A stretch of DNA of 64,000 bases from Chloroflexus aggregans DSM 9485. Its GTDB lineage: Bacteria > Chloroflexota > Chloroflexia > Chloroflexales > Chloroflexaceae. The number at the start of each line of letters is the position of its first letter. Positions within the stretch are counted from its first letter, which is position 1. The translations under genes and the position numbers were made by a program. The stretch covers positions 1,313,353-1,377,352 of the forward strand of contig NC_011831.1 of NCBI RefSeq assembly GCF_000021945.1, read 5' to 3'. The notes beneath the pieces are model-generated. The model saw nothing but the letters and a program-made list of their open reading frames with translations, was not told where the DNA came from and made no database searches. Shown here one piece after another: positions 1-39,164 of the stretch.

Positions 1-176
1 GGCTCCGCTTCGGCGATGCCCTGTCCCTCGAAGCAACTGCCCAACAACTCGGTTGCACTGTCTCCGCTGTCAAAGCGCTCCAACACCGGGCGATGACCCT
101 TGCCTGCAAACTGATGCGTGAGCAGCAAGAGATCATTCCCAACCCACGGCGGACGTATACCCCGCCGATGGCGTGA
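1..176 (+). CDS. RNA polymerase sigma-70 family factor, C-terminal region-4 fragment (5' end lies outside the window)
   Basis: Frame 3 translates to ...LSLEATAQQLGCTVSAVKALQHRAMTLACKLMREQ...PPMA*, a sigma-70 region-4 HTH-like pattern. Stop at about 174-176. Confidence 0.4.
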   Translation, partial: LRFGDALSLEATAQQLGCTVSAVKALQHRAMTLACKLMREQQEIIPNPRRTYTPPMA

Positions 177-191
177 ATGGGGGAAAGAGGT

Positions 192-228
192 GTTCAAAAG
201 GGATCAGCGATGCTGATCCCTTTTGAAC
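192..228. terminator. Perfect 17-bp inverted repeat (gttcaaaagggatcagc-gat-gctgatcccttttgaac); likely bidirectional terminator between the convergent sigma and csx1 genes
   Basis: Perfect stem read directly from the sequence. It lies in the 68-bp gap between the two convergent gene ends. Confidence 0.45.
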
Positions 229-243
229 ATGGACGAACACACA

Positions 244-1482
244 CTAGGATGGAAGCCGACAGGTATTTTGCAAAGACTCATATAACCGTTTTGCGCACTC
301 TTCAACCCTTTGCGCGCCCTGCGGTTGTTTCCGCTTGCCGGCGTGCATAAGATCGTTGCGCAAATCACCAAGTTGGTTATAAAGATTAATCACTTCTTTC
401 AGTGAGGGAATGGCATTGAGATCAACAGGTATCTCTGCGCCAGTACCGCCCCTCTGAGCTTGGACAGCCTCGCCAAGCATCTGTTCGACCAGTTGACGCT
501 CTGCCTTTTCCAATATATCACTCTTACCAAGTTGTACCATGACCCACGACACCAACCACTCACGAGCCAATGCCACCGCTTGAAAAACCTGACCGCGATC
601 CAGATACCAGCCAACTAAATTCAGTTCGGTTTGCAGTATGCGTAACGGATCGACTTGTTCGGTTTTACCGAGCGCAATTGGGCGAAAATTGTCAATGATC
701 TGCTGAGCTAGCGGCATAAAGGGCACTGCCAGCGTGCCGATCTCGTGTTCGACAGCGGGCAATTGTTGCATAATCTGAGCACTTGCCTGCATTGCATCAG
801 CCGGACGCACGACGCGCAGTGCCTTTGAGACTTTCGTCAGATTCTTCGCTGTTGCTTTAATTGGTGAATTGTTCCAAGCAGCCATTTCATCCTTACTAGC
901 AGTTTTTGGATCGGGCTTGCCCCGATTATGCTGCGTATGCAGCAACGTAGCCAAATCACGCGCATCGCCGAAACGCACAAACAGGTCGGCCCCGACCATC
1001 CAGTCGAGCAATTCGACAAAATTGGTCAGATCAAGCACAGGCGTGCGATGAGGAGTGACACTCTGATCACGCATTTCAAAATTACCGAAGAATACATGTT
1101 TTAGTTGAATGGACTTGACTTTGCGCAAATAGGCAGCGGCGAGGAAGGATAAGAATGGCAGCGAGCGAAAGCCGTGAGTAATATCGAACACAACCGCTGC
1201 GTTCGGTTCAATGACGTCAACCACAGCCTGAAAGATTCGCCACAGTTCAGCATCATCGCGCCCATCAGGGATGCGAACTGCTTGAATGCTCGCAGCTTGC
1301 GCACTGGCAAAATATTGATGGTAGAATTGAGCCGTCAGTTCAGTAGTAAAAACAACGAAATCCAGATCTGGAAGGTACTGAGCCAATGCTAGCCCGAAAA
1401 AGGGCGCAACATGCTCGCAACCATCTGGAAAGACATAGCATGTTTCTTGCGGTCTAGCGCCGAGGAAGGTAATGGCTTTCAT
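244..1482 (-). CDS. csx1: Csx1-family CARF-HEPN effector (DxTHG / TM1812-MJ1666 type)
   Basis: N-terminal ITFLGARPQETCYV, FDITHGFRSLP (DxTHG) and VFFGNFEM motifs typical of Csx1 CARF domains. C-terminal RNDLMH matches the HEPN Rx4-6H motif. It is the last gene of the cas operon. Confidence 0.7.
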   Translation of the reverse strand: MKAITFLGARPQETCYVFPDGCEHVAPFFGLALAQYLPDLDFVVFTTELTAQFYHQYFASAQAASIQAVRIPDGRDDAELWRIFQAVVDVIEPNAAVVFDITHGFRSLPFLSFLAAAYLRKVKSIQLKHVFFGNFEMRDQSVTPHRTPVLDLTNFVELLDWMVGADLFVRFGDARDLATLLHTQHNRGKPDPKTASKDEMAAWNNSPIKATAKNLTKVSKALRVVRPADAMQASAQIMQQLPAVEHEIGTLAVPFMPLAQQIIDNFRPIALGKTEQVDPLRILQTELNLVGWYLDRGQVFQAVALAREWLVSWVMVQLGKSDILEKAERQLVEQMLGEAVQAQRGGTGAEIPVDLNAIPSLKEVINLYNQLGDLRNDLMHAGKRKQPQGAQRVEECAKRLYESLQNTCRLPS

Positions 1483-1490
1483 CGAACACC

Positions 1491-3587
1491 CTACTCCTTC
1501 TCCTTTGTGAGTAACGGCAAACCCTGCTCATCGCCCGGCTCTTCGAGCACGAGATTAGGACCGGCATCGGCCATTTTGTTCGATTTTACCTTATTGGCCA
1601 CAAACCACTCGAAGTTCTTTCCCTCTGGGTCTGGATGAACATCGGTGCGCGGGTAATGGATGGGAAGCGGTGGAACCGGATCGCGCAGCAAGGCGAGGAG
1701 ATCGGTAATATGCGGTAATCGGTCCAATGATTGACCGTAGCATCGCTGCATCGCCTGTGCAAACGCTGCCACCCATTCACTTCGTTTGCCAACCTCAGCT
1801 CGCCGCCACCCCGATTGCTGCAATGAACAATAGCGAGTGCTGAGTTCGAGCAGATCAACCTGATCTACCGTCAACTTAACGCTGCCAAATCCGAGCGGTT
1901 TAGCATAACCGAGCCGGAAAAAGCATTTTTCTTCGCCCAAGCTTAGCGTCCATAGCAACGCACCAAGCTCAACCGGTGCCAGGTTATGAAAATCGATTGT
2001 GAACTGAAATACGTTACCCGGCACACGTACTCCGCGCACCGTGCGATTCTGATGATCGCGACGCTGTCCGGCACGCTCATATTCGAGCCGATTCAGACTA
2101 TTTCCGTGGTGACGGTAGAACTTCCGTCCACGCAACTGATTGGGTCCATCGTAGCCAATGGTGGTTGCAGAGCCTGGTCTCTTGCGCTCCTCCTCACTCC
2201 ATTCGCCGTCTTTCTTGCGCAGGTAGAAAAGCGTGGTGGTCGGTTTGGGTGAACCCAAGACGGCCAACGGCATGGGTTCGGCATATACGCCTTTGTCATC
2301 AATCAATACTGCGTGGCTAAAGCGCACCCGTCCGGCATAGGCAACGCGATCCTTGCGATCCTCGGCTGGCGTGGCGCGTACCCATCCGAATACGCGCGAA
2401 GCAATGTCTAGCCGCTCGTACTCTTCACTCGGCTTCAGGTGCTCAGGGAGCAGATCGCCGATAGAATGGCGATAGCGCAGCCGCGCCACTTTTGCCAGGG
2501 CAATATTGCGCACGGTCTTTTGATCCGGTTCCAGTTCAACGTACACCAAATTGCCCGATGCCAGCCGATCACTCTGCCCCTGGCTGTGAAAATCGTCACG
2601 TCGTTCGTGGAGTTGGGCCTGCAACACCGCGTTAAAGTCGGCTTCGCGCTCGGCATCGAAATGGACGTGCTTGGCTTTGGCCGGAGCACCTTCTTTGAAA
2701 TAAAAGAAACGCTCATTGCGTTTTGTCTCGATAGTGCGGCCGGTTATTTTCACCCACCCCTTAACCAAGGGTTTGTTGTACTTTAGTAAGCGATTTTTAT
2801 CTTGCTCACGCGCAAGTGCTTCCACCTTCTTCACACCATTCTTGGCGGTGCTCAGAACGGCATACGCCGTTTCACCACAACGCCAATCGCCGTGCAAAAC
2901 GTTCAGGTTACGGTCTTCGTGATACGCACCGATTGTCGCCTCCTCGCAGAGGGCAATGACGCCCGGTTGATCACCGTCCGGCAAACTCAGCACGATGCCG
3001 GGTTTAAACCGTTTGGACTCAATCGGGTCGATACGATACTCGAGCCGTTCCTCGCCATTGAAGACACTGAACGGTGAATTGGTCACCGTTTCAAACAAGG
3101 CACGGATCATACCGCGCAGACTCGTAGCAGGTATAGCGTCTTGACCATCATACTGGAAAAAACGGTAGTTTTTATGCTGAACTTCGCGGTTATCGGCCAG
3201 CAGAATAGTAGTCGATTGCACATCGTGGCTATCCGCAATAAAAAGAGGGGTGACCGCTTCGAGGGTGCAGGTGATACGCCCGGTCAAACCCACATACCGG
3301 TCGTGAGGCGGTGGTGGGCAACGGCCCAGCAACTGCGCATCGGGATCGGTTTCCGGTATATCGGGTGGTGGCAAATAGCGGACGAAATTGTATGGGTTGA
3401 GGAAGCGGTAGGCTTCCCGCGCCTTGGTTGACTCTTTGGCACGTGGCCACGGCACCGTCGGTGGCGATGGTTGAACCACCTGCACCGGTGTCTGATGACG
3501 ATCCCGCTTTTCGGGGCGATTGGCCTTGCCTCCGCTTTGATGCATCTGTCCACGCTTTGGTGTCTGTTTGTTTCTGTGCTTCGCCAT
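1491..3587 (-). CDS. Large RAMP-superfamily protein (Cas7/Cas5 group), paralog A, 698 aa
   Basis: Has a YRFLNPYNFVR N-terminal motif, LTGRITCTLEAVTPLFIADS (beta1-like) and a glycine-rich loop IPATSLRGMIRALFE. A C-terminal G-rich segment YAKPLGFGSVKL is present. It shares a clearly paralogous motif set with ORF 4380..6476. Confidence 0.55.
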   Translation of the reverse strand: MAKHRNKQTPKRGQMHQSGGKANRPEKRDRHQTPVQVVQPSPPTVPWPRAKESTKAREAYRFLNPYNFVRYLPPPDIPETDPDAQLLGRCPPPPHDRYVGLTGRITCTLEAVTPLFIADSHDVQSTTILLADNREVQHKNYRFFQYDGQDAIPATSLRGMIRALFETVTNSPFSVFNGEERLEYRIDPIESKRFKPGIVLSLPDGDQPGVIALCEEATIGAYHEDRNLNVLHGDWRCGETAYAVLSTAKNGVKKVEALAREQDKNRLLKYNKPLVKGWVKITGRTIETKRNERFFYFKEGAPAKAKHVHFDAEREADFNAVLQAQLHERRDDFHSQGQSDRLASGNLVYVELEPDQKTVRNIALAKVARLRYRHSIGDLLPEHLKPSEEYERLDIASRVFGWVRATPAEDRKDRVAYAGRVRFSHAVLIDDKGVYAEPMPLAVLGSPKPTTTLFYLRKKDGEWSEEERKRPGSATTIGYDGPNQLRGRKFYRHHGNSLNRLEYERAGQRRDHQNRTVRGVRVPGNVFQFTIDFHNLAPVELGALLWTLSLGEEKCFFRLGYAKPLGFGSVKLTVDQVDLLELSTRYCSLQQSGWRRAEVGKRSEWVAAFAQAMQRCYGQSLDRLPHITDLLALLRDPVPPLPIHYPRTDVHPDPEGKNFEWFVANKVKSNKMADAGPNLVLEEPGDEQGLPLLTKEKE

Positions 3588-3700
3588 CGCGACCTCATTG
3601 GATATGTGCTACGACAGGTCGTGCTTTCAGATCGTTAATCATCAGTTGAAAGATTTGGTGACACGCATCGAGAATATCCTTCGCGGTGCTCATATCCCAT

Positions 3701-3925
3701 TCATTCTCTGCCGGGATACATGGCAATATTTCGCCTTCTCTGTAATTCTTCCAACAACTGCATCAGCTCAGATGGACAGTTCAAAATCGGGATACGGAGC
3801 ACTTCTAACAAGGCGCCCCAATTCCTTCTTTGGGCCTGTTGATGAGTGACTTTAGAATAGTAGGTTCGTAATACCTCTTCAGTAGCGCGGAGCATAAACA
3901 TATGAATAACACTTTGCAGCTTCAT
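3701..3925 (-). CDS. Small hypothetical protein (74 aa) in an AT-rich insert between the RAMP paralogs
   Basis: ORF in the same frame as 3935..4330, separated from it only by a TAA and 3 codons. Local AT-rich composition differs from the flanking cas genes. Confidence 0.3.
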   Translation of the reverse strand: MKLQSVIHMFMLRATEEVLRTYYSKVTHQQAQRRNWGALLEVLRIPILNCPSELMQLLEELQRRRNIAMYPGRE

Positions 3926-3934
3926 AAACGTCGG

Positions 3935-4330
3935 TTAACTCCAGCATCTCCGTATCGACATCAAAAAACATATTGGATCACGGAGCAGATCGATGATCTG
4001 ATCCGTGCAATCCCGCAACGTTACGAACACTCTCCGCCTGTACCCCTCTTCAGACAAAACGTTACGCACATTTCTAGCGATCTGTCGTATCTTTCTGGCA
4101 TCCCTACCTAAAACATCGGAATGATGATCCTTCTCTATGCAATTCAACACCTCGTCTAAGTCAGCACTCAAAACACGCGCAGCTTGAGATAATTCGAGTT
4201 TCTCCAGGTCTTGACGGAGCATTCTTTGTCGATCAACAATGCCAGGTCGATTGGTACGAGAGGGGTAAATCGGTGTTCGGGCAGTGACATTACCCAGAAA
4301 CTCCAGGTTCAAACCAATATACATGAACAT
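3935..4330 (-). CDS. Small hypothetical protein (131 aa), predicted helical; possible Cas11-like small subunit or unrelated accessory
   Basis: Its size and position between RAMP genes resemble Cas11 (Csm2/Cmr5). No diagnostic motif was recognised, and it lies in AT-rich inserted DNA. Confidence 0.3.
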   Translation of the reverse strand: MFMYIGLNLEFLGNVTARTPIYPSRTNRPGIVDRQRMLRQDLEKLELSQAARVLSADLDEVLNCIEKDHHSDVLGRDARKIRQIARNVRNVLSEEGYRRRVFVTLRDCTDQIIDLLRDPICFLMSIRRCWS

Positions 4331-4379
4331 GACCTCCCACAGCGACAGCTCATTGGTTTTCTCTATGGAACTGCCTCAC

Positions 4380-6476
4380 TCACGGGATTATATTGCCATT
4401 TTTATCAATCAGGGGTAAACCCGCCACATCATCCTCCGCCAGTGGCAATGCGATACGCGGTCCGGGATTGTTACCGCCCCGCTTGTTGCCGACAAACCAT
4501 TCGTACTGTTTGCCATCCGGCTGCGGTTGGCGGGTCGGACGCGGATAGTGGACCGGCAGGGGAGGTGTGTCAGCCAGTAATGCCTTGAGGTCGCAGATGT
4601 TTGCCAACATCTCGAAGGCGGCGCCGAAGCGTAACTTCATTGCCTGCTTGAATTCCTTGATCCATGCATCGATTTTTTGCTGATCCTGATCGTGCCAGCC
4701 GCTACTCGTGAACGAGGCGTATCGCGCTTCAGGGTGCAGCAAGGAAATCTTCACGATGTCAATTTTCGCCGAGCCAAAACCCAGCGGTTTGGCGTAGCCG
4801 ATGCGGTGATGCCATCCTTCGATCTGCAAACTCCAGAGCAGTGCGCCAAGCTCCAGCGGCGCCAGGTTCTCGAAATCCACAGTGAACTCAAAGATGCTGC
4901 CCGCCTGCTGAACGCCACGCACCGTGCGGTTCTGATCGCTCTTCACACCGTTAACACTCCGGTATTCCTGCGGATTGAGCCGCGCGCCATGATGCCGATA
5001 GATCTTGCGCCCGCGCAGGATCTGATTCTGGTTGTTGTAATCTACTTGTCTATCGTCTTGTCCATTTTGTGGTTTGCCGGTGCGTGGACGCAAATAGAAG
5101 CGATAGGTGGTCGGCTTGGGTGTAGACAAAATAGCCAGAGTTTCATCAAACGTTCCGCCATCTTTGGTCAATACGGCATGGCTGAAGCTAACGCGCCCGG
5201 CATACGCCGTTCGTACTGACAGTTCTGGAGGATTAACGGCAGTTTCGTCACCCCACACCCACCCAAACACCCGACACGCAGGGCAGAGCGCATCGTAAGT
5301 CGCGCATTTCTTCAGGTCAGACGGGTACAGCAGATCGCCGATGGTGCGCTCGAAGCCGACACGCGGCACCGAGACGGGCACAATGAATCGCACCTTGTAT
5401 CCACTGTTGCCAACTTTGTCGAGCATGGCATAGACCAGATCACCATCTGTTAGTTTTTGGCGGCCTTCGACAATAAAACGGCTGAAGGCCGGCTCTGTGC
5501 CCTGCGGACGATTTGGATCCCGCCGTTTGCGCACCTCATCGCGGTGACGCTCTTGATAGTCGGCGATCAGTTCTTCGTACTTCTGCCGCACCGTGTCAGG
5601 CAAATCAAGCGGAGAGAGCTTCTGATTGGTGAAGAACAGTCGCTCATCGTGTTTATTCTCAATGTTCTGATTGGTAATACAGAGATACCCGCTCACCTTT
5701 AGCTGATTAGCACCGGGCTCCGGCAGTGATTGAGCCGATTTTGCCAGATGCACCACATTCCAGAACTTGAAATTGCGGCGCGGATGGATCATACGCTCGA
5801 TAATCGCGTGACACAACTCACCATGCGCAAAGCCGGTCAGCGAGAGTTTTTGACGCTGGGCGTAAGGTTTACTGAGCGACTGAGCGACCGTTTTGCTCTT
5901 CTGCAACGGATCGTACACATGCACCCATGCAGCGTACTGCGGACCGGCAGGTCGTTGGCCGGGTGTGATCGTTGTTGTTCCGGGTAACAACTCCAATTCC
6001 CACCGCGTGTTGATTTTGCGCACCCGCGCTGGAACCAGTTGCAGCGCCAGCTCTGGCAACAGGTGATAACTTAATCGCTTATCGCCGGCAAAGTGGGCAA
6101 AGCAGGAATTGGTCGCTGCTTCAAAGATGGCGCGGATTGCACCGCGCAGACTCGTACCGGGAATAGCGACCTTGTTCTCCGGATCGCGAAAGAAGCGATA
6201 GTGACGATGTATCTTGCCGTTGACGTGCTCTTCGCGCACGTTCTCACCATCCGCGACAAAGATCGGGGTGGTAGCGGTGAGCCGGCAATAGATGCGTCCG
6301 GTCAACCCTACATACCGATCATGGGGCGGCGGTGCGCAACGGCCCAGCAATCGAGCAATGTGCGCATTGCGCGTTTCCAGCGTGCGCACGAAGTTGTATG
6401 GGTTGAGAAAGCGGTATCCTTGTGCAGATGAGGTACCGCTCGATATAGACCGGCGTTGGGTTTTAGATTTGCTCAT
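4380..6476 (-). CDS. Large RAMP-superfamily protein, paralog B, 698 aa
   Basis: Has YRFLNPYNFVR, LGRCAPPPHDRYVGLTGRIYC, the G-rich loop IPGTSLRGAIRAIFEA and a C-terminal YAKPLGFGSAKI. It is the same length as paralog A, and its start overlaps the upstream gene's stop (ATGA). Confidence 0.55.
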   Translation of the reverse strand: MSKSKTQRRSISSGTSSAQGYRFLNPYNFVRTLETRNAHIARLLGRCAPPPHDRYVGLTGRIYCRLTATTPIFVADGENVREEHVNGKIHRHYRFFRDPENKVAIPGTSLRGAIRAIFEAATNSCFAHFAGDKRLSYHLLPELALQLVPARVRKINTRWELELLPGTTTITPGQRPAGPQYAAWVHVYDPLQKSKTVAQSLSKPYAQRQKLSLTGFAHGELCHAIIERMIHPRRNFKFWNVVHLAKSAQSLPEPGANQLKVSGYLCITNQNIENKHDERLFFTNQKLSPLDLPDTVRQKYEELIADYQERHRDEVRKRRDPNRPQGTEPAFSRFIVEGRQKLTDGDLVYAMLDKVGNSGYKVRFIVPVSVPRVGFERTIGDLLYPSDLKKCATYDALCPACRVFGWVWGDETAVNPPELSVRTAYAGRVSFSHAVLTKDGGTFDETLAILSTPKPTTYRFYLRPRTGKPQNGQDDRQVDYNNQNQILRGRKIYRHHGARLNPQEYRSVNGVKSDQNRTVRGVQQAGSIFEFTVDFENLAPLELGALLWSLQIEGWHHRIGYAKPLGFGSAKIDIVKISLLHPEARYASFTSSGWHDQDQQKIDAWIKEFKQAMKLRFGAAFEMLANICDLKALLADTPPLPVHYPRPTRQPQPDGKQYEWFVGNKRGGNNPGPRIALPLAEDDVAGLPLIDKNGNIIP

Positions 6477-7063
6477 TGTGTCTCCACCTTATCTGGCCTG
6501 TCACTTAATGCCCGATACCAGACAAACGCCGTGCGCCCCTGTTCGGTGTAGCGCCAGAAATGCAAGTAGACGCGACCAGTTGCATTCAGAGGATACGCCA
6601 GGATAGCTGCTGCAACCCGGTCTTCGAACCAGCGCGGCTGATGATCTTTACGCTCGCCCCATAGCATGACCGACTCCGCGTAGCGGCGAAGCTGACAGTC
6701 AGGATGTTCCTTCCAGAAGTCCCTGGCACCGAAACTCGTGAACGACACTGATGTGCCAATGTAATGCCACAACCAGCGGTTGCCATCGCGTCGCAGCGAA
6801 AGATGACCAAGCTCACCGAAGATCTCGGCACGCTCGAGGAACTCTGGCTGCGTCGGCAGATCGGCAAACTCGATATGGCTGACGTGCTCCCAGATGCGGT
6901 AGGGCATCGCCTGCCAATGCCCTTGCCACGCAGTGAGGAAGGCTTGCAGTTGATCAGGCATACACTCGCCACCCAAAATGGCTGGGCGATCTGAGTTGCT
7001 CAGATTCGCCTTCTGCATCTTTTCGTACAGTTGGGTAAAAAAGTCGTTGCTTTCGTCGCTCAT
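6473..7063 (-). CDS. Hypothetical Trp-rich protein (196 aa) embedded in the cas operon
   Basis: It has 4-nt overlaps with both neighbours, which implies translational coupling. No recognisable motif was found. Confidence 0.4.
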   Translation of the reverse strand: MSDESNDFFTQLYEKMQKANLSNSDRPAILGGECMPDQLQAFLTAWQGHWQAMPYRIWEHVSHIEFADLPTQPEFLERAEIFGELGHLSLRRDGNRWLWHYIGTSVSFTSFGARDFWKEHPDCQLRRYAESVMLWGERKDHQPRWFEDRVAAAILAYPLNATGRVYLHFWRYTEQGRTAFVWYRALSDRPDKVETQ

Positions 7064-8853
7064 GACACCCTCGCCGGATAGAGATCAGGCAACCATGTGC
7101 CGTTGATTTTATCGAAGTAGCTGTCTTTCTTCAAACCGAAGGCATGTTTATATTCCTTGACCGTCACATTGAACGCTCTGATCCAGCTCTCTACCAGTGT
7201 CCTCCAATCGTTCTCTGTTGCCGGATCAAGCATCAACGTGCGATAGACGCCGCTCATCCCGCCTTTCGATTGCAAAAGTTGCTGTTTAGCGGTAATCGCC
7301 TGCTGCGCGGCCGGCTCCTGGTTATTCGGCTCAGACAGCGGAAAATCGCTTTCGTGAATAATACCGAGAGTCACAGCACCGTCTTCGATCCTGCACTGAC
7401 CAAAACCTTTGGCAGCGCCGAAGCCAATAGTGATCAACCCATCGTGCAGATCGCGCAACACCAGCGCCAGCCAACCCAATTCCCACGGCTCTGGATTCTC
7501 AAGGAAGAGCCGCACCCGAAACTTCGGCTGCCACAGCACCACCGCGTCGAACTTGGCCGTATCGCGTCCGCCGCCGGTAAAGCGGTCGATAGCCAGAAAA
7601 TCGAGCACCTTGAGAGTGACCTTGTCGCCGACAAATGGTGCATCTTCGACGCGCAACCGACTGCCGTTCCACGGGCTGCCGAAGAGCCGGCAGGCGAGAC
7701 AGAGTTTCTCCTCTGCCCCTTTTTGCTCCAACGTATCTCGTTCAACCTTTGGTCGAGCCTTGATAAAGCTGTTACAACTTGCAACCGGGTCATCGGTCTT
7801 GGTCGTCAGCGGATTACAGGCGGGGCATGTCGCTAAGAATGACGTTTTGCGACTCTTCATATCCTTACCGTTATCCCACGCGCTGAAGGTTGCCAGAGTA
7901 CGGGCGATCCGCTCGGCCTGACTCCGCAAGGCGCCGCGCAGGCTCGAACCGGGCAACACCGGCTTAGCCCCTTGCTCATAAGCCGCGAACACCGGCGCAT
8001 GATCAAACCCGCTCCGACCGGCTTGAGCCACATCGTTGGTCAGAAAGGGACCGGTTGCGGCCAGTGTAAATTCGGCCAAAACCCATGAACGGGCAACCGG
8101 ATCATTACCTTGGTACGGTTCTACCCACGCCCGCACCTGCTGGACCTGATTGGTCAGCCATGTGCGGTCGCCGTCAGTAGTGTGCCAAGGCGGCCCGCGG
8201 TGTAAAAACTCGATCAGCACCCCTGCCTGATTCAGATCGCGCTCGATCCACTGCACCTCGTTGAGGGTAAACGCACCCAACCCCCGATTGACCCGACCAC
8301 CGATTGCGCCTCGTCCCTGTTCCCATTCGGCCAACGTCGCCGCCAATAAGGGCAGCAGTTTCGGCACATCAGGCAGTTTGGGATCGATCTCAAGCCTCAG
8401 AGTAAATACCGTCCCTGCCGGCAACACTTCGTAATCGAACTTAATCCGTTCGCGGCGCGCAGCCGCACCGGTCACCCGATCAATCCCAACGCCATCGCGG
8501 ATGGTCAGCGATGGGATCGTATCGAGCACGGCATCGTAGACCAGCACCCGGGTAGCAGTGGCGGTATCACTATCTTCCCTTGGATTCACATCGCCGAAGA
8601 GTTGACAGACGAGGCATTGACAGGCGTCGTTTGACGATTGGTTGTCAATCACTTGACACGGACTTTCCCCAAAGCGAGGCGCGAGCCGCGTGGCAATGCT
8701 GCGCAGCACACCGGCGATAGCGGTACCCGGTATGAGCAGCCGCCCCCGCACGTCACGGCGCAAGAGATCGTCGGTCGTTTCCGTATCGCTGCCCGTGCCC
8801 ACGTGAAGCGCTGTACGCAGCGTTAGATTGGCAGTGATGGCACGAAACTTCAT
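7060..8853 (-). CDS. Fusion of two Csm3/Cmr4-like Cas7 domains (Cas7-Cas7), 597 aa
   Basis: Domain 1 has LHVGTGSD, LLIPGTAIAGVLRS, a CQCLVCQLFG zinc knuckle, GIDRVTGAA and GGRVNRGLGAF. Domain 2 has LPGSSLRGALRS, CPACNP...CLACRLFGSPW, AIDRFTGGGRD and IGFGAAKGFG. Both look like complete Cas7 units. Confidence 0.7.
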   Translation of the reverse strand: MKFRAITANLTLRTALHVGTGSDTETTDDLLRRDVRGRLLIPGTAIAGVLRSIATRLAPRFGESPCQVIDNQSSNDACQCLVCQLFGDVNPREDSDTATATRVLVYDAVLDTIPSLTIRDGVGIDRVTGAAARRERIKFDYEVLPAGTVFTLRLEIDPKLPDVPKLLPLLAATLAEWEQGRGAIGGRVNRGLGAFTLNEVQWIERDLNQAGVLIEFLHRGPPWHTTDGDRTWLTNQVQQVRAWVEPYQGNDPVARSWVLAEFTLAATGPFLTNDVAQAGRSGFDHAPVFAAYEQGAKPVLPGSSLRGALRSQAERIARTLATFSAWDNGKDMKSRKTSFLATCPACNPLTTKTDDPVASCNSFIKARPKVERDTLEQKGAEEKLCLACRLFGSPWNGSRLRVEDAPFVGDKVTLKVLDFLAIDRFTGGGRDTAKFDAVVLWQPKFRVRLFLENPEPWELGWLALVLRDLHDGLITIGFGAAKGFGQCRIEDGAVTLGIIHESDFPLSEPNNQEPAAQQAITAKQQLLQSKGGMSGVYRTLMLDPATENDWRTLVESWIRAFNVTVKEYKHAFGLKKDSYFDKINGTWLPDLYPARVS

Positions 8854-8856
8854 CGG

Positions 8857-11193
8857 CTATCTCCTCTCTTCAGCCTTCTGGCGGGCAGGCGCAGCGATCC
8901 GGGCAGCCAGCATCTGCAAGCCGATCTGCAAGCCGATGCGCCATGCCAGCGGATTGTGGTCCAACTTGTGTGACTTGAGTTTATCTACCAACGCATCCAG
9001 CAGCTTATCGATCACATCCATACCGCGCTTCCCGTCAGCCGTGAAGAAATTCGGTTTGTCGCGGCCGGACAACGATTTGCCGAGGAGGTTCTCTGCATTC
9101 CCTGACCGTTGTAAATCCTGCTTGATGGCATCAACCGAGGTGTGCTGAGAAACATGTAACAGCCGAGCAATCGTCTCAAAACGCCCATCGTTGAAACAAG
9201 CGAAGGATGTTGCTTCCGCTTCGAGCTTTTCCTCCCACTCGCGGGTGAAAGCAAGCACGGCCACAAACGGGGGCGACTGCTCGGCAGACGCCATCTGCAA
9301 CGGGGTGAGATCGAGCATCGGACTGGTGATCCCTTGAAGTTGACGGTAGACCGGATGATTGAACGCAACACGACCGAAGCCCTCATTGCGGCGGAGACCG
9401 ATACCCTGCGCCTCTACCTCCCCCAGACGCTGTCGCAGGTCATCCAACGGGATTCCCTTGAAACTCAGGCGTACACTGGAACCGGCAACGATGGCAATAT
9501 CTCGCGCGCGCGGCAACCCTAACGTGGCATTGAAGGAGTCCACCGTCCGCACCGCTGAAAACGCCAGCGCCTCGCCATTCTGGTTGCAATCAATCGAGAC
9601 TGCTGCGCCATTCGGCAACTGCAACTCGCGCTTTAGCCATGCGGTATCGAACCCACGCCAGAAACGTCCCCACGGATCGACGATAATCGCATCACTCAAC
9701 AATAGCATCGTGACATGCTCCGTTGACGTGAGGCGTCCTGTGAGTGACTGCAAGCTGAACAGCGGTTCGTCGATTTTCTGAAACACGGCGCTGACTTTAC
9801 CATAGCCGCGTTGGGTGGCTTTACCGAGGTGCAGTTCGTTTACCGCTCCATTTGGTTGAAGATTGGCCATGCTCTGTAAAAGGTCCCAGACCGTTTGATC
9901 GGTACAGGTTACCTCACCGACAAAATACTGACCCGGCTCTAAAGCTACGTATCCGTACAGATCGCCGGTACGCACCCGCCCACTGTCAGGATCGATGCGA
10001 ATGTGCATTTCCACCATTGTGGACGGTTTGTGCTTGGAACGCGGCATACCACTGACTAATGAAATAAACCCTTCCAAGCTTGTTAACTGGCCGGTACGCT
10101 TACATCGCGGGCATTCCTCTGGCGCACTCGGATCGAACAGACTCCAGACTCCATGGCCTTTATCTCGGCTAGGATCGGCATGCCCCGGATGCAATTCACA
10201 CGTTAGCAGATCGCGCGGGGCAATTATAGTGGGATAACCATTAGCTTTCTGAAACACTTCTACCGGGGTCAACATCGAGAAGCGCACTGTATCACGGTAG
10301 AACAGATCGACAAAATCTTGGTATACCGACCCCTGAAGTTGCTTTCCCAGATGCTTCGCCGCACGCCACGCCAGCGCGCCGCGCAGCACACTGCCGGGAA
10401 TGATGTCGAGCGTCTCGTACTGATTACCGGCTTCGACCCGACGAGCGATCAGTAACGGTTCGTCAAGCCGCATGAGAACGCGCAAGCGATAGGTATGATG
10501 GTTGGGATAGGGGGGCAACTGAAGCGGACTGATGTTGATTGCGCCGGCAGGCAAGGCGGGTTCTGCGACTTGTTCATCTCTTAACCGCTTGGCCAATCGA
10601 TCCAGAATCGCGGTTTCCTGCGCTCGATCAACAAGATGAATCTCGCACTCACCATAGCCACGCCGCTTCCCGGCGCCAAGATTACGCAGCATACGTGCAG
10701 CGGCGACGAGCCATTCAGCCTCGCGCTGCGCATCGGCATCATCATTCTGGCACTCGGCCACGAAGCGGAAGTGCAAGCTGCCATCACCCTCCTCACGGGT
10801 GAACAGTTTATTTTTCTCGGCCCGACGTGTGCGAGGATTAACCCGCACGCGCGTTGTGATCTGCGCCGCCGTTTCGCCCGCACTCCACACGTCCGATGGC
10901 ACGAGCGGTGTCATCATACCCGCAGGTCGTGCAGAAGAGATACGCCAACGCTTTTGGCGGGCGGGCGAACCGAAGATCGTATCCACCACATGGTGATTGG
11001 ACGCGAACACTTGCAGTGTCAGCAGGTTGGTTAAACTTTCGCGCAGGAGACCGGCCAGCACCGTGCCGCGGATTACCGGTACGCCGTCGGCATCGCGGAG
11101 TAGGGCCGAGTCAACTTGCAGACCGAGACCATAACCGGCGCCGATGTGGTAATCGCTCTTGAACTCGATCTCGAATTCGAGACGGATACTCAT
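8857..11193 (-). CDS. RAMP fusion protein (778 aa): N-terminal Csm5/Cmr6-like Cas7 domain, second Cas5 (Csm4/Cmr3)-like domain, helical C-terminal extension
   Basis: Domain 1 has DYHIGAGYG, VIRGTVLAGLLRE, IFGSP and LGAGKRRGYGE. Domain 2 has IIPGSVLRGALAWR, VRFSMLTP (resembling the Csm4 'fS.a.P' motif), an ECPRCKR zinc motif and GIGLRRNEGFGRV. The last roughly 150 aa are predicted helical and could be a fused Cas11. The gene is adjacent to cas10. Confidence 0.5.
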   Translation of the reverse strand: MSIRLEFEIEFKSDYHIGAGYGLGLQVDSALLRDADGVPVIRGTVLAGLLRESLTNLLTLQVFASNHHVVDTIFGSPARQKRWRISSARPAGMMTPLVPSDVWSAGETAAQITTRVRVNPRTRRAEKNKLFTREEGDGSLHFRFVAECQNDDADAQREAEWLVAAARMLRNLGAGKRRGYGECEIHLVDRAQETAILDRLAKRLRDEQVAEPALPAGAINISPLQLPPYPNHHTYRLRVLMRLDEPLLIARRVEAGNQYETLDIIPGSVLRGALAWRAAKHLGKQLQGSVYQDFVDLFYRDTVRFSMLTPVEVFQKANGYPTIIAPRDLLTCELHPGHADPSRDKGHGVWSLFDPSAPEECPRCKRTGQLTSLEGFISLVSGMPRSKHKPSTMVEMHIRIDPDSGRVRTGDLYGYVALEPGQYFVGEVTCTDQTVWDLLQSMANLQPNGAVNELHLGKATQRGYGKVSAVFQKIDEPLFSLQSLTGRLTSTEHVTMLLLSDAIIVDPWGRFWRGFDTAWLKRELQLPNGAAVSIDCNQNGEALAFSAVRTVDSFNATLGLPRARDIAIVAGSSVRLSFKGIPLDDLRQRLGEVEAQGIGLRRNEGFGRVAFNHPVYRQLQGITSPMLDLTPLQMASAEQSPPFVAVLAFTREWEEKLEAEATSFACFNDGRFETIARLLHVSQHTSVDAIKQDLQRSGNAENLLGKSLSGRDKPNFFTADGKRGMDVIDKLLDALVDKLKSHKLDHNPLAWRIGLQIGLQMLAARIAAPARQKAEERR

Positions 11194-12818
11194 GCCTCGT
11201 CCTCCTGCGGTTCATAATCGTCGGGGTTATGACTCAACTCCTGCGCAAACTCCCAAACTTCCAGCAGATCGAGCATGCCGTGAACGACCACATCGCGGTT
11301 ATCGCGCGTGATACTGCGCCAATAGTGAGCGCCATTCCCGTCGTTCTTGGGCTTGCCCAGCACCGCAAGCGCATCGACTACCGCCGAACGTGAAGCTGCA
11401 CTCAATCGCTCCAAAATCCATTCGAGCCGATGCTGCGTCCACCGTTCTAAGTTTTGGGTACGCTGCTGCACAGGAATATCCGTCTGCACCTCGGCAAAAC
11501 AACGGCGCAATTCGGCCAGACGCTTCCGGGGAAGATCTTTCAGGGCATAGCGCTGCGCCAGCAGATGCTTGAGGTCGATCCCGCGCAGCAAGGCGTCTTT
11601 CGAGAGATCGTGCTCTGCGACCCAATACGGACGTAACGAGCGCCGGATGACCTGATCACCGTCTGCCTCGGCCATACCCGCCAACCGATTGCCCAAAATG
11701 ACCTCGAAATTGACCGCCGATAGATGCCCGTTCGTCTTGGCAGCCAGCAATTTGCTCTGGCGCTTGGCATCCTCCAGCAAAGCTTCGGCCCGGCGATGGG
11801 CCAGTGCATACGGATAGGTACGCTTGCAAATCACCACTGCTGCGGCAATCGTCGGGCGAGGCACATTGTGCAGACCTATCTTATTTACCAGCATCTGCAT
11901 ACGCTCTTCCCATTCGAGGCAGAAGCGACGGGCAATATCGAGCGCATACGACGCCGGCACAAGTGCAAAGAGATCATCACCACCGAGAATGAGCGGGAGC
12001 ATCGGCATCATCGTCGCCTGTGCCGGAACTTGCTTGCGGAACTCAATCATCGGAACGGCCAGACTCTCACTCAGCACCGTTGATAGACCTTGCGAAAGGT
12101 TCTGGAGCTGCCCCTGGTCACAATTGCCGAATAATTGACCCATACCGTTGCCGTCGGCCACCAAATAGGCTACGTAGTTTCGTTTACTCAGGTCAAAAAC
12201 GGCAATGGCATCGGCGTCTTCGGGCCAATCGGGTTCAATGTGGGCAGGAATTGCCGCTTTCTTAGCATAAGGATCGTACACTCCACCAAGGAATTCGCGC
12301 AGACCACGATCACGCTCAGTTGCTTTGATCTGACAGGTCGCACACAGATACCTGTGGCGGGAATCGTTCCTTCCCGCCAGCCGATCACGCCGTTCCGCCA
12401 ACCCCACGCCACACGACTCGCAGAATGCGACATACGGCATATGCACTTCGGCTACTACTCCCTGCCGATGACTCTTCGCCCAGCGCAACTTTGTACCGGC
12501 TTCATCATTGGCCGTGCGGAAATCACTGTTCATCGCTACAGGCTCAGCAACTGTCAGACTGCCACCCAACGCCAGCCGGTAGCGTTCAGCCAGATCGGCG
12601 CCGAAAGCAACCGCGTCATTTCGATCGTCAAAGATCACCCGAAAACTACCACCATCGTTGACCACAACCTGACCGTTGTACTGCTTCGCCAAGGTATCTT
12701 CGACGCTACGGCAGAAGCGAGTCAGCAACTGACTCGCCCCAACCACTTCGCGCAAGCGCGAAGAGCGAAAGATGAAATCCTGAATCTTATCGGCCTCGGC
12801 GGCCAAGAGGTAGGGCAT
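11190..12818 (-). CDS. cas10: Cas10 (minimal, no HD domain; cyclase GGDD intact)
   Basis: The N-terminal ADKIQDFIF motif is a palm-domain hallmark. CESCGVGLAE...RYLCATCQ is a treble-clef zinc finger. ILGGDDLFALV is the GGDD cyclase motif. At 542 aa it is too short to carry an HD nuclease domain. Confidence 0.75.
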   Translation of the reverse strand: MPYLLAAEADKIQDFIFRSSRLREVVGASQLLTRFCRSVEDTLAKQYNGQVVVNDGGSFRVIFDDRNDAVAFGADLAERYRLALGGSLTVAEPVAMNSDFRTANDEAGTKLRWAKSHRQGVVAEVHMPYVAFCESCGVGLAERRDRLAGRNDSRHRYLCATCQIKATERDRGLREFLGGVYDPYAKKAAIPAHIEPDWPEDADAIAVFDLSKRNYVAYLVADGNGMGQLFGNCDQGQLQNLSQGLSTVLSESLAVPMIEFRKQVPAQATMMPMLPLILGGDDLFALVPASYALDIARRFCLEWEERMQMLVNKIGLHNVPRPTIAAAVVICKRTYPYALAHRRAEALLEDAKRQSKLLAAKTNGHLSAVNFEVILGNRLAGMAEADGDQVIRRSLRPYWVAEHDLSKDALLRGIDLKHLLAQRYALKDLPRKRLAELRRCFAEVQTDIPVQQRTQNLERWTQHRLEWILERLSAASRSAVVDALAVLGKPKNDGNGAHYWRSITRDNRDVVVHGMLDLLEVWEFAQELSHNPDDYEPQEDEA

Positions 12819-12836
12819 AGGTGGACCTCCAATTAT

Positions 12837-14570
12837 TTATTGGCGCAGACCCGGCGGTAGGAATGTCAGATCGCATACCTCAACCAAACGCGACCACGAA
12901 GGTGCTGCGACTCGCTCTTTCCTTCCTGTAGCAACAGCAACCGTACCTGGATAGAAATACTCTAACCAGTTTTGGATAAACTCATCCACAGCAGCCTTTA
13001 CCCACTCCAACGCGGCCTCGGCAACAGAACGAGGAAGGTGCAGATGGGTATGAATGGCTTCACCGCGCAGTTTGGTGAAACCCTGATAATTCTTGTGAGA
13101 AAAATCGAGCGCTTTGCCGTTCCAATACTTACTGAGTGAAGGGCAGCCCGACGCAATTTCTACTTTTCCAATCTGTCGCAGGTCAAGCGGATCGCCTCCC
13201 ACCAATACCCCTCGCATTGCCCTAGCCCCACTGTGATCGGCGAGAAGTTTGAAACCTTTGATCTGATCGGCATTAGATAAATTACTCACTTTGCTCGTTG
13301 ACCCGCTATTGTCCTTCAGGACGAGGCTATCTTTGAGCCAGGCAATACATAGCCGCGCCTTCAAGAGAAACTCGTCCAGAGCGGCCGCCCGCAAATACGC
13401 CGAACGGTAATCTTCATTCTTCGTAATCAACCGCTCGTTCTTCGCCAGCTCATCGCTCACATACGCCAGCAGCGGTTCTGGTCGGGCAAACAGCGAATGA
13501 GTAGGGGCGGGATCGCCATGTTTCAACTTCAGATGTTCATCCAGCAACTGCTGCGCCGCAGCGGTTGCGGTCGTTGCTGCGGACACATTGGGCCAAATCG
13601 GACCTAAGACATCAATGCTCCACGGCACCACATCATCGGGCAACGGTGGATTGAAGCGATCGCGCATCTGCTTAGCAACGGCGTAATTGCCGTTTTCCCA
13701 CTCTTCATACATTCTGAGCAACTCGGCCAAACGCTGTACCTTCTCCAGATCACACGGCTCAAACAGCGACTCACCATCGGCAGTAACGTCCAGAGTTTGC
13801 GACATCGCGCCGAGGATACCACTCCCCTGACGATCGGGGCTGTGCTTCGTCCCCAACAAAACCAGTGCATTGCGGAAGCTGTAGCTTTCGTACAACCGTC
13901 GCACCTGCTCCCAGTCGCGCAGGTGGAAGGCTGCGTAGGGGTTGGCAACGGTGCCAATGCGACAGGTAAAGCCATAGGGCCGGTGCCAATCACGGTCATA
14001 CTCATCAAAATCGACATAGGTGATCGGCAGACCCGAATGAGCCGCGTAGAGAAATGCGCCCACCACCATACTCTTCTTAGCGCCGGTAATGTCTACGACG
14101 TTGGTGTAACCTGCCGGAGGTTGGGCTTCCTGTTTTTGGAACGCTTTGCAGAGAGTGCGGAAAACGTGGGTAGGCGTATCTTTGGGCAGTTCGATCAGGT
14201 CAAAACTATTGTCCGCCAAGTCGGGACGGAACTGTTCAGGGAGGGGAGCCTGCTTCAGGCTCAGCATATACTGCTTAAGCAGCGTACCATGATCGACGCC
14301 CGGCATCCCGCTATACGATGTATTCAATACCAACACCACCCGCTGCGGCTTCAACACGCAAACAACCTGCAACAACGGCTCAAACGACTCGCCGACGGTC
14401 AGCGCTAAGGTATGCACGGGCCGGTCAACACCGCGTAGCCGATCAGGTTCTTGAGCAGCTATCTTAAGTTCGCAACCCAGCAATTGCTTAATATAATCCT
14501 CATAGTCACGTTTATTCCAGTATTTGCGCGTCTGTTCCCTCAAATTGTCAACATCACACTTGCCACCCAT
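12837..14570 (-). CDS. csm6: Csm6-like CARF-HEPN protein (577 aa)
   Basis: The CARF Rossmann core is HTLALTVGESFEPLLQVVCVLKP...VVLVLNT plus VVDITGAKKSMVVG (DxTGxK type). C-terminal RGEAIH matches Rx4H HEPN. It is the first gene of the operon. Confidence 0.55.
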   Translation of the reverse strand: MGGKCDVDNLREQTRKYWNKRDYEDYIKQLLGCELKIAAQEPDRLRGVDRPVHTLALTVGESFEPLLQVVCVLKPQRVVLVLNTSYSGMPGVDHGTLLKQYMLSLKQAPLPEQFRPDLADNSFDLIELPKDTPTHVFRTLCKAFQKQEAQPPAGYTNVVDITGAKKSMVVGAFLYAAHSGLPITYVDFDEYDRDWHRPYGFTCRIGTVANPYAAFHLRDWEQVRRLYESYSFRNALVLLGTKHSPDRQGSGILGAMSQTLDVTADGESLFEPCDLEKVQRLAELLRMYEEWENGNYAVAKQMRDRFNPPLPDDVVPWSIDVLGPIWPNVSAATTATAAAQQLLDEHLKLKHGDPAPTHSLFARPEPLLAYVSDELAKNERLITKNEDYRSAYLRAAALDEFLLKARLCIAWLKDSLVLKDNSGSTSKVSNLSNADQIKGFKLLADHSGARAMRGVLVGGDPLDLRQIGKVEIASGCPSLSKYWNGKALDFSHKNYQGFTKLRGEAIHTHLHLPRSVAEAALEWVKAAVDEFIQNWLEYFYPGTVAVATGRKERVAAPSWSRLVEVCDLTFLPPGLRQ

Positions 14571-14723
14571 ACACCCCTCCCTTGTGGATAACCACTACGT
14601 ACATCGGTTGGCAGCCTGATCTGCTCTTGCAGTCTACATTACCACTACTGTCGGTGCAGCTCATCCCCACTCCTGCTGATTCTTCCTCATCACTTCTGCT
14701 GATGCGAATCGGTTGAACGGCTG

Positions 14724-15590
14724 CTACACTCCCTCAATAAACATAGCAAAATGATCGCGGATGAAGCGATAGTCGAGTGGTTCGCTGTTCGAAAGTTCCC
14801 ATGCGTTGCGGCACTCGGCCAGGATGGCGGTCTTGTGCGTGTTGACCGTGCTGAGCGAGATCGATAGACGCTCGGCGACCTGGTCGGGGCGAAAGCCCTG
14901 CGCAAAGGCACGAAGTACGTCGCGTTCGCGCGGACTGAGCCGGTCCCAGACTTGACGGCAGCGTGGATCGTCAACCGCAGTGAGTTGGCGTAGGTAAGAA
15001 GGAAGCGATGTCTGTTGGGTGAGTACCCGTAGTCCGGGGAAAAAAGCACCCCACGGCTTGAGAGGAACCGCGATGAGACGCACACCATCGGCGGGCGAGA
15101 CGTGCATCTGCGCACCGTCTTTGACTCGTGCTAGCGTCGCTTCAGGGGTGTGCATGTGCCATAAGCGGTCACTGAAATCGCCGTAGATGGAGATAACTGA
15201 GGTTACCAGTAAGGCCAGCATTCGCCGTCCACCGCTGATGCAGAGGTGCAACCGGCGGCCTTCGGTTTTGAGATTGGTGATAAGGTCGCGGATGGTGGCG
15301 AAGGCGGCATCGGCATCGGCTTCGGTACGGATGTCGTCGAGTTCAATGCCGTTGCGGGTAATCGGTACGTGTCGGAGCCGACAGCGTTGACCGGCGTAGT
15401 AGTCGTCAACGAATTCGGCTTGCAGCCTTTGCCAGGCTTGTCGGATGCGCGGATTGGCCAATGAGAGGTGCAAGATATAGACTTCGTTGATGGCTTCACC
15501 TTGGGCGAGCAGGGCGTCGAGGGCGAAGGTGATCACTTGGGGCTGACCACCAAGGGTTGCGATCAGTGTTGTCGAGTGAGATGTTGTCAT
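14724..15590 (-). CDS. Transcriptional regulator: N-terminal CARF/Csa3-like Rossmann domain plus C-terminal LuxR/GerE HTH
   Basis: Has TLIATLGGQPQVITFALDALLAQGEAINEVYILHLS (Csa3/CARF-like) and C-terminal LSPRERDVLRAFAQGF...LSISLSTVNTHKTAIL (LuxR HTH). The ORF track extends upstream to 15935, but that part reads through the promoter. The likely start is MTTSHS at about 15590, with an alternative at about 15629. Confidence 0.5.
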   Translation of the reverse strand: MTTSHSTTLIATLGGQPQVITFALDALLAQGEAINEVYILHLSLANPRIRQAWQRLQAEFVDDYYAGQRCRLRHVPITRNGIELDDIRTEADADAAFATIRDLITNLKTEGRRLHLCISGGRRMLALLVTSVISIYGDFSDRLWHMHTPEATLARVKDGAQMHVSPADGVRLIAVPLKPWGAFFPGLRVLTQQTSLPSYLRQLTAVDDPRCRQVWDRLSPRERDVLRAFAQGFRPDQVAERLSISLSTVNTHKTAILAECRNAWELSNSEPLDYRFIRDHFAMFIEGV

Positions 15591-15613
15591 AAGACTGTTT
15601 GTCAAGCGTTGTT

Positions 15614-15628
15614 TGCTATATGATAGCA
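15614..15628. promoter_or_regulatory. Inverted repeat TGCTAT-ATG-ATAGCA in the divergent promoter region; candidate operator
   Basis: Perfect 6-bp arms with a 3-bp spacer lie between the divergently transcribed CARF-HTH regulator and the P-loop/Csx3-like gene. Confidence 0.3.
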
Positions 15629-15671
15629 TGTTCACAATGTTTATCACAATATTCTGATCTCGTTTGAAGGA

Positions 15672-25284: not shown

Positions 25285-25785
25285 TTAGGCCAGGCGTCCC
25301 GTATCGCTCCGTTCGAGCACGCGCACCATTCCGGTTAACACTCCTTCGAGCAGTTCGAGCAAACGATCGGCATCGGCTGACGACAAATGACCGAGTGCTG
25401 CATAAATTTGCTCACGCCGGGCTTGCTTGATTGCGGCAATCAATGCCAACCCCCGCGGGGTCACCTGTACCATTACCTGCCGACGATCCCGCTCGTGCCG
25501 GGTGCGCTCGACCAGTTGCTTATCGAGCAGTCGATCAACGACGCCGGTGAGTGCGGCTGCCGACTGTTGCGTCGCTTCGGCCAGGTCCGACATCTTGCAT
25601 TCACCGTTGGTTTGGGCAAGATGAAGAAGGGTATAGAACTGAGTCAGGGTCAAGTTGAAGCGTTCGTCGTCGAGCAACTGCACAAACTGGCGCTGCGCCA
25701 GCCAACTGATGCGCAGGATCATCTGCTCGATAGCATCGAGTGTTGTATGTTCGGGTAGTGTTTTGGGCTGTTCTGCTTCAGCCAT
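25285..25785 (-). CDS. MarR-family transcriptional regulator
   Basis: Winged-helix pattern LTLTQFYTLLHLAQ...MSDLAEATQQSAAALTGVVDRLLDKQLVER. The real start is MAEAEQ at about 25785. The upstream part of the ORF track is translated repeat DNA. Confidence 0.7.
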   Translation of the reverse strand: MAEAEQPKTLPEHTTLDAIEQMILRISWLAQRQFVQLLDDERFNLTLTQFYTLLHLAQTNGECKMSDLAEATQQSAAALTGVVDRLLDKQLVERTRHERDRRQVMVQVTPRGLALIAAIKQARREQIYAALGHLSSADADRLLELLEGVLTGMVRVLERSDTGRLA

Positions 25786-25877
25786 GCGATCCGTTAATCC
25801 TAGCCCATGTAGATATTCAACAATATTAAGTATATCAGAGGCAAGTAATCTTGTAAAGTCATGAGACGCAACGACGC

Positions 25878-25946
25878 TCACGCAAAGGACGTTAACGCAA
25901 AGACCGCAGAGGGCGCAAAGGCGCAAAGAGGTTAACGCAAAGGCGC
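25878..25946. repeat. Copy A of a dispersed repeat with ACGCAAAG(G/A) motifs at about 11-bp periodicity
   Basis: About 85% identical to 51243..51310. It lies in the 5' region of marR. Confidence 0.5.
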
Positions 25947-25951
25947 TATGG

Positions 25952-26080
25952 GCACCACCCGTAGGGGCACGGCGTGCCGTGCCCTCACTGACGCACAGCA
26001 CGCCACCCGTAGGGGCACGGCGTGCCGTGCCCTCACTGACGCACAGCACGCCACCCGTAGGGGCACGGCACGCTGCGTGG
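25952..26080. repeat. 48-bp tandem repeat (2.6 copies), each unit containing a 9-bp GC hairpin (gggcacggc-gt-gccgtgccc)
   Basis: Direct tandem read from the sequence, with no spacers, so it is not CRISPR-like. It lies between the histidine-kinase gene end and the marR promoter. Confidence 0.6.
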
Positions 26081-32683: not shown

Positions 32684-32692
32684 GAGTTATTT

Positions 32693-33232: not shown

Positions 33233-33245
33233 TTGGAGGGATAAC

Positions 33246-36638: not shown

Positions 36639-36647
36639 GAGGAAAAA

Positions 36648-38956: not shown

Positions 38957-38974
38957 TGATGGACTCCTGCACTC

Positions 38975-39110: not shown

Positions 39111-39164
39111 GAGCACATGACGCAGGAGTCGGCAAGTGTCACTGACCGTCACGTGCGTTGACCG

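Follow-up and report, generated by a model that had tools for sequence, protein, structure and literature searches.

We analyze a 64,000-nucleotide stretch of the Chloroflexus aggregans DSM 9485 genome (NC_011831.1, positions 1,313,353 to 1,377,352 of the forward strand; hereafter, the window), near the start of which lies a type III CRISPR-Cas effector locus. Because its core genes match the subunits of a published complex in the same order, and because the catalytic residues and the GGDD motif of Cas10 align, the locus is very probably the III-Dv (subtype III-D variant) interference and signalling cassette of this organism. An earlier reading of the same DNA (the original prediction) had proposed a new, condensed architecture; the locus instead matches the catalogued III-Dv system gene for gene (PDB 8S9T; PMC11026444). 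The system is thus already known, in a public genome, and is not a new architecture. It differs from the model system in carrying a second paralogue of the insertion-bearing Cas7 subunit, to which we return below.

Background

In Synechocystis sp. PCC 6803, the III-Dv operon runs cas10, cas7-cas5-cas11, cas7-2x, csx19 and cas7-insertion, with Csm6 and Csx1 encoded nearby and with cas6, the adaptation genes and the array downstream (Schwartz et al. 2024, PMC11026444). The complex has been published as an intermediate between multi-subunit type III systems and single-protein III-E (PMC11026444), and the series III-D1, III-Dv, III-D2 and III-E has been set out by Mitsuda et al. 2026 (PMC13294483). 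Within the Synechocystis complex, Csx19 is placed between Cas5 and Cas10, and the aspartates D26 of Cas7-Cas5-Cas11 and D33 and D246 of Cas7-2x are needed for three cuts in the target RNA; cleavage there has been demonstrated biochemically at 6-nt intervals. On cognate target RNA the complex makes cyclic oligoadenylate (cOA) and Csx1 is activated, and palm residues are needed for this cOA-dependent activation (PMC11026444).

Core subunits and gene order

We compared the encoded proteins with profiles from Pfam, NCBIfam/TIGRFAM and PADLOC, searched the PDB by sequence (phmmer) and compared structures with Foldseek. Four of the five core proteins (Cas7-Cas5-Cas11, Cas10, Cas7-2x and the TIGR03986 RAMP) match chains of PDB 8S9T/8S9U/8S9V/8S9X. 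The fifth, a 196-aa protein that the original prediction had left as unknown, gave no direct phmmer match to the PDB Csx19 chain and was identified by the TIGR03984 and PADLOC profiles as Csx19 instead. The features of a III-Dv core are found one by one: an HD-less Cas10 with GGDD; Cas7, Cas5(Csx10) and Cas11 in a single polypeptide; a Cas7-2x with a catalytic aspartate in each domain; Csx19 as a core subunit; and a terminal Cas7 with a large insertion (TIGR03986), a description that fits both paralogues. A comparison of the open reading frame (ORF) coordinates with the published operon gives the same order: cas10, cas7-5-11, cas7-2x, csx19, cas7-insertion.

For the 778-aa fusion, the TIGR02674 score (84.8) is under the trusted cut-off of 177. 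An AlphaFold2 model of it (mean predicted local distance difference test score 78.5) matches chain A of 8s9x/8s9t over its full length (Foldseek E 1e-31, TM 0.62), and comparison of the model with that chain shows the helical C-terminal third to be the counterpart of the Cas11 domain.

The original prediction of a type III effector locus with an HD-less GGDD Cas10, RAMP fusions and CARF-HEPN ancillary proteins is thus borne out by profile and PDB matches, and RAMP domains are matched by profiles in the 778-aa, the 597-aa and both 698-aa proteins, the last two being paralogous as had been claimed. The count of "four giant RAMP fusion polypeptides" is too high: two of the four are fusions, and each 698-aa protein has just one Cas7 domain, interrupted by a large insertion.

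Catalytic residues and proposed mechanism

The residues on which III-Dv activity depends are conserved. D28 of the 778-aa fusion aligns with Synechocystis D26, and D28 and D284 of Cas7-2x align with D33 and D246. In Cas10, LILGGDDL aligns with the Synechocystis GGDD (8s9t_C), the GGDD itself being residues 279-282, and ADGNG is conserved. Cas10 has no HD Pfam match and no N-terminal HD domain, its sequence opening with the first palm domain; DNA cleavage by it is accordingly not expected. The original prediction had read the system as purely cOA-signalling; because the three catalytic Cas7 aspartates are conserved, this is not the best reading. By homology, the locus should both cut target RNA and signal through cOA.

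If the complex is built like its Synechocystis orthologue, Cas10, Csx19, Cas7-Cas5-Cas11, Cas7-2x and a Cas7-insertion subunit would each be present once and assemble on one CRISPR RNA (crRNA). A complementary transcript would be bound and cut at three sites six nucleotides apart by D28 of the fusion and D28 and D284 of Cas7-2x, and a non-self target would turn on the Cas10 palm (GGDD) to produce cOA. The accessory genes suggest what might follow: cOA would activate the two CARF-HEPN RNases (the Csm6-like protein and Csx1), the CARF helix-turn-helix (HTH) regulator would sense it, and AAA-Csx3 would bind or degrade it. Since the cassette has no array, cas6 or adaptation genes, crRNAs would be taken in trans, processed from arrays elsewhere in the genome. 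The second Cas7-insertion protein (paralogue B) would most likely be an alternative or additional top subunit of the backbone.

Layout of the locus

The features of the locus are collected in Table 1. The original prediction counted eleven co-directional genes between 244 and 14570, which is roughly right: this interval holds nine intact minus-strand ORFs and one 74-aa ORF, and two of these (131 and 74 aa) are pieces of one decayed gene. The genes within these limits are real; the limits themselves are too narrow, for two more CRISPR-associated genes extend the locus upstream to 16829. The three ATGA start/stop overlaps (11190-11193, 7060-7063 and 6473-6476) are present as claimed, and a GGAGG-like motif precedes most starts.

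Table 1. Features of the type III locus and of the adjoining start of the window, from upstream to downstream
Feature	Position	Strand	Evidence
AAA ATPase-Csx3 fusion	15672-16829	+	Pfam Cas_csx3 7e-17 and AAA_16; PADLOC C3a67 "AAA-Csx3" 2.5e-205, full length
CARF (Cas_NE0113) and LuxR/GerE HTH regulator	14724-15629	-	Pfam PF09623 3.6e-49 (residues 131-318); GerE 1.3e-10
Csm6-like CARF-HEPN ancillary RNase, 577 aa	12837-14570	-	PADLOC CARF1--CARF_HEPN 7.3e-226, full length
Cas10, 542 aa, HD-less, intact cyclase motif	11190-12818	-	PF22335 2.2e-15; PADLOC Cas10/Cas10d up to 1.3e-56; PDB 8s9t_C 3.5e-11
Cas7-Cas5(Csx10)-Cas11 fusion, 778 aa	8857-11193	-	RAMP 1.4e-28 (residues 8-184); Csx10 TIGR02674 6.8e-24 (241-619); PDB 8s9t_A 8e-20
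Cas7-2x, two fused Cas7 domains, 597 aa	7060-8853	-	RAMP 2.1e-44, two stretches; Csx7 TIGR02581 2.6e-46 (above cut-off); PADLOC Cas7_IIId 1.3e-116; PDB 8s9t_D 3.6e-19
Csx19, 196 aa	6473-7063	-	TIGR03984 1e-11, 44.8 bits (cut-off 35); PADLOC Csx19 4e-99
Cas7-insertion paralogue A, 698 aa	4380-6476	-	TIGR03986 1.1e-160, 537 bits (cut-off 161); PDB 8s9t_E 2.3e-83 (residues 18-681)
Decayed HEPN-motif gene remnant	3701-4330	-	ORFs of 131 aa (3935-4330) and 74 aa (3701-3925), one frame
Cas7-insertion paralogue B, 698 aa	1491-3587	-	TIGR03986 1.2e-157, 527 bits (cut-off 161)
Csx1 (CARF2-HEPN) ancillary RNase, 412 aa	244-1482	-	TIGR02221 4e-29; DxTHG motif 5.5e-12; PADLOC CARF2--CARF_HEPN 2.3e-104
Inverted repeat (hairpin) closing the locus	190-235		Direct sequence reading
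End of convergent gene, sigma-70 region 4 domain	3-173	+	Translation; Pfam Sigma70_r4 4.4e-06

Both ancillary RNases carry an R-x4-H (HEPN) motif: the 577-aa CARF-HEPN protein has RGEAIH at residues 502-507, and Csx1 has RNDLMH at residue 375. Transcription of the AAA-Csx3 gene diverges from that of the other genes; Csx3 is a cOA-binding, ring-nuclease-type domain. The open frame of the CARF-HTH gene reaches 15935, homologues place its start at about 15590-15629, and its Roseiflexus castenholzii orthologue has 292 aa. The AAA-Csx3 and CARF-HTH families are known type III accessories (for the AAA-Csx3 family, PMC6546367). A promoter and terminator scan of the locus returned nothing above chance and did not flag the hairpin at 190-235.

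Distribution among relatives

We surveyed 74 other loci from GTDB species representatives. All five core genes occur in the same order in 52 of them, in Chloroflexota, Acidobacteriota, Clostridia, Desulfobacterota and Asgard archaea, and a homologue of the 577-aa CARF-HEPN protein lies upstream of Cas10 in 36 of these 52 full-core loci.

The closest comparison is with R. castenholzii DSM 13941 (CP000804.1 4,269,315-4,291,645; locus L079 of the survey), where all 12 gene positions agree in content and order. Window positions 797-14978 are 90-96% identical to it at the DNA level, and the similarity ends inside csx1 at one side and inside the CARF-HTH gene at the other. Most genes show a synonymous divergence (dS) of 0.06-0.17, and the eight genes from the CARF-HEPN gene to csx1 have ratios of non-synonymous to synonymous divergence (dN/dS) of 0.17-0.46. 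At 90% identity, the cluster of the neighbouring Lon protease has named members only from Chloroflexus or unclassified Chloroflexi; Roseiflexus proteins appear in those of Cas10 and Cas7-insertion B. These sequence comparisons point to a recent event in which the cassette was transferred between Chloroflexus and Roseiflexus, or replaced. The R. castenholzii locus differs in that a type I module (Cas3 and others) adjoins it, in that its Cas7-2x and Csx19 genes each contain a 75-bp in-frame internal tandem duplication (L079 13413-13524 and 14417-14531), and in that less DNA separates its two Cas7-insertion genes. Some 370 bp past its csx1 begins a repeat of about 181 bp, present in tandem in at least 7 units (L079 21156-22331).

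Supply of crRNA and points against the assignment

Several observations weigh against the III-Dv assignment. Tandem Repeats Finder, a repeat search, a k-mer spacing scan and Rfam all failed to reveal a CRISPR array in the window, and no Cas6, Cas1 or reverse transcriptase homologue was found there; the claim that the 64 kb lack an array, cas6 and cas1/cas2 thus held up in several array scans and homologue searches. Among the 120 matches listed for the Cas6 of a related two-copy locus, none is named C. aggregans. Within the cassette, the small HEPN gene has decayed. Finally, the proteins are distant in sequence from the Synechocystis subunits (identity ~20% for the fusion protein), so that the functions given here are assigned by homology.

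The array and the Cas6 that supply crRNA in the published system are absent from the 64 kb. Type III loci do not need them in cis, and the majority seem to rely on Cas6 in trans (2025 classification). CRISPR repeats are reported to have been identified in the C. aggregans genome via CRISPRdb (PMC5017753). Among relatives, arrays are found near 14 of the 41 surveyed loci with at least 5 kb of downstream sequence. A locus of Ca. Caldilinea saccharophila (L015) that has both Cas7-insertion paralogues continues from the cassette into Cas6, a reverse transcriptase, Cas1 and a 30-repeat array. Because relatives carry arrays nearby, the array-less state of the C. aggregans copy is a local feature and not a property of the system. 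The original prediction had held that a catalogued subtype with an array and cas6 just outside the window would count against its novelty; the subtype was found, while no adjacent array is seen in the 243 bp, all that the window holds, beyond csx1.

Two other repeats in the window were considered. Three imperfect 56-nt direct repeats in intergenic DNA (38973-39148) were rejected as a CRISPR array on account of their irregular spacing (75 and 45 nt) and lack of spacers. A perfect 48-bp tandem repeat (2.4 copies, 25955-26069) lies at the 5' end of a MarR-type ORF (25285-26049) and is not a CRISPR array.

Alternative readings

The reading put forward originally, of a new type III subtype or architecture between multi-subunit type III systems and III-E, draws on the combination of two fusion proteins with two large Cas7-insertion proteins, on the lack of an array, cas6 or cas1/cas2 in the window, and on a second Cas7-insertion gene that the Synechocystis model system does not have. 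However, each core gene matches a published III-Dv subunit in the same order, and the "intermediate" position is itself the published description of III-Dv. The genome is public, and the current names of its NCBI entries (ACL23979-ACL23993), to which the window's proteins are identical, already include these family names, e.g., "TIGR03986 family type III CRISPR-associated RAMP protein" and "Cas10/Cmr2 second palm domain-containing protein"; the layout, moreover, recurs in dozens of genomes. We regard a new architecture as highly improbable. Much the same low probability attaches to the idea that Cas10 here makes SAM-AMP-type (S-adenosylmethionine-AMP) messengers and not cOA, as in III-D2, a near relative whose HD-less Cas10 makes SAM-AMP and SAM-AMP2 (PMC13294483). 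The locus has no CorA effector, its four accessory proteins all belong to the CARF or Csx3 types, and the motif is GGDD, whereas the inactivating III-D2 mutant D347A/E348A suggests a D-E pair there (PMC13294483); the orthologous Synechocystis III-Dv complex, in addition, activates Csx1 with ATP as the only supply (PMC11026444).

A somewhat less remote reading, which we still consider unlikely, is that of an orphan cassette that was acquired without an array or processing enzyme and is losing function. The absence of an array, cas6 and adaptation module from the 64 kb, the HEPN pseudogene between the two Cas7-insertion genes and the seemingly recent transfer, marked by DNA that is 90-96% identical to that of Roseiflexus and by a dS of 0.06-0.17 in most genes, all fit such a course. 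Yet all ten other genes are intact with their catalytic motifs conserved, and the dN/dS values of the eight genes compared with Roseiflexus are those given above (0.17-0.46). The same array-less layout has been kept in Chloroflexus sp. KM4338-03 and in R. castenholzii, and array-less type III loci are the norm in the 2025 classification. A III-Dv cassette that cuts and signals remains by far the more probable account.

Comparison with other type III systems

With the Synechocystis system, the C. aggregans locus shares the five core genes and their order, the HD-less GGDD Cas10, the three Cas7 aspartates and the Csm6 and Csx1 ancillaries. It differs in having the second Cas7-insertion gene, in an operon without adjoining cas6, adaptation genes or array, in the added CARF-HTH regulator and AAA-Csx3, and in its low protein identity, which at ~20% for the fusion is lower than for Cas7-insertion (E 2e-83).

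The III-D2 system (Cas7x3, Cas7-5, Cas10 and CorA; PMC13294483, PDB 9WXH) likewise has fused Cas7 domains, an HD-less Cas10 and a related TIGR03986-type Cas7. There, however, one protein unites three Cas7 domains, Csx19 is missing from the published complex, SAM-AMP and SAM-AMP2 signal to CorA, and the target is cut at a single site; in C. aggregans, csx19 lies between distinct genes for Cas7-2x and Cas7-insertion, CorA is absent, and CARF proteins are the effectors. The III-E effector Cas7-11/gRAMP is related through the insertion-bearing Cas7, which is homologous to the C-terminal part of Cas7-11 (NF041225 ~1e-50; PDB matches). III-E is a single protein without Cas10, Cas5 or Csx19 and works with the Csx29 protease, not cOA, whereas Cas10 and a Cas5 domain are present here and NF041225 scores 98-181 bits against a cut-off of 700. 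III-D1 (e.g., the Saccharolobus solfataricus complex, PDB 8BMW) belongs to the same subtype and has a related Cas7 (8bmw_H match), with a backbone of separate Cas7 paralogues in place of fusions.

Tandem Cas7-insertion paralogues

The two Cas7-insertion proteins are 39% identical (BLASTP 2e-133); they differ mostly in the insertion region, and the family motifs are common to both. Two such genes occur in 17 of the 74 surveyed loci, all 17 in Chloroflexota. In a neighbour-joining tree, the B copies form a clade of their own, which includes loci with a B-type gene only (e.g., C. islandicus L007), and the A copies fall together with the single Cas7-insertion genes found in other phyla. Both copies are under purifying selection; against its R. 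castenholzii orthologue, paralogue B has a dN/dS of 0.43. The literature searched makes no mention of more than one Cas7-insertion subunit. We therefore raise, tentatively and as the less probable outcome, the possibility that the A/B pair defines an undescribed III-Dv sub-variant in which the two serve either in a stacked five-Cas7 backbone or as alternative caps. Were A and B to stack, the crRNA would be longer and the backbone might have a fourth register; alternative caps would mean two complex isoforms with different insertion domains.

The N-termini of the family also vary. Many Cas7-insertion homologues outside Chloroflexus have an N-terminal cold-shock domain (PF00313), possibly the counterpart of an N-terminal domain of 112 residues that is unresolved in the Synechocystis subunit. 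Paralogue B has, instead of a cold-shock domain, a basic and probably disordered N-terminal extension of about 55 residues.

A decayed HEPN-motif gene

The ORFs of 131 and 74 aa that separate the two Cas7-insertion genes are in-frame pieces of a single decayed HEPN-motif gene of about 280 aa. Intact homologues of 256-282 aa occur in six loci (L015, L018, L042, L049, L073 and L078). Compared with them, the window copy has an in-frame stop, has lost about 40 central residues, carries RNIAMY in place of RNxAMH (His to Tyr) and is truncated at the C-terminus. We also considered the two ORFs as cas6 remnants and rejected this, as the intact homologues are small HEPN-motif proteins without a Cas6 signal. 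Two of the intact homologues have weak HEPN/DUF4145 Pfam matches, and the family is otherwise without a strong Pfam or PADLOC match. In each of these six III-Dv loci the intact RNxAMH gene sits after the Cas7-insertion gene, and this small family may be an undescribed III-Dv accessory.

Other features of the window

Elsewhere in the window, a low-GC (guanine plus cytosine) island at 31300-37100 (+), with 39-46% against ~55-57% in its flanks, encodes an SPFH/Band 7 protein, a small protein with a below-cut-off Pfam match, a 930-aa HerA/FtsK-like P-loop ATPase (PADLOC mad8/HerA) and a YbjN-like protein; the island may have been acquired horizontally as a defence or membrane-stress module. At 40669-42251 (+), a NotI-like restriction endonuclease (PF12183, 6.7e-47) is directly followed by a D12-class N6-adenine methyltransferase, and the pair is a probable type II restriction-modification system. 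Near the end of the window, at 62904-63371 (+), lies a full-length BrxF (PADLOC 9.4e-91), and a BREX system may continue past the window end.

Conclusions

With structures solved and a mechanism published for the III-Dv class, and with this copy found in a reference genome, little rides on the assignment itself. As an example the locus is useful: a III-Dv cassette complete for interference and signalling appears to have moved between two hot-spring Chloroflexota genera without an array and adaptation genes. Its conserved second Cas7-insertion paralogue poses a small, testable question on length or cap variation in a type III complex of fixed stoichiometry.

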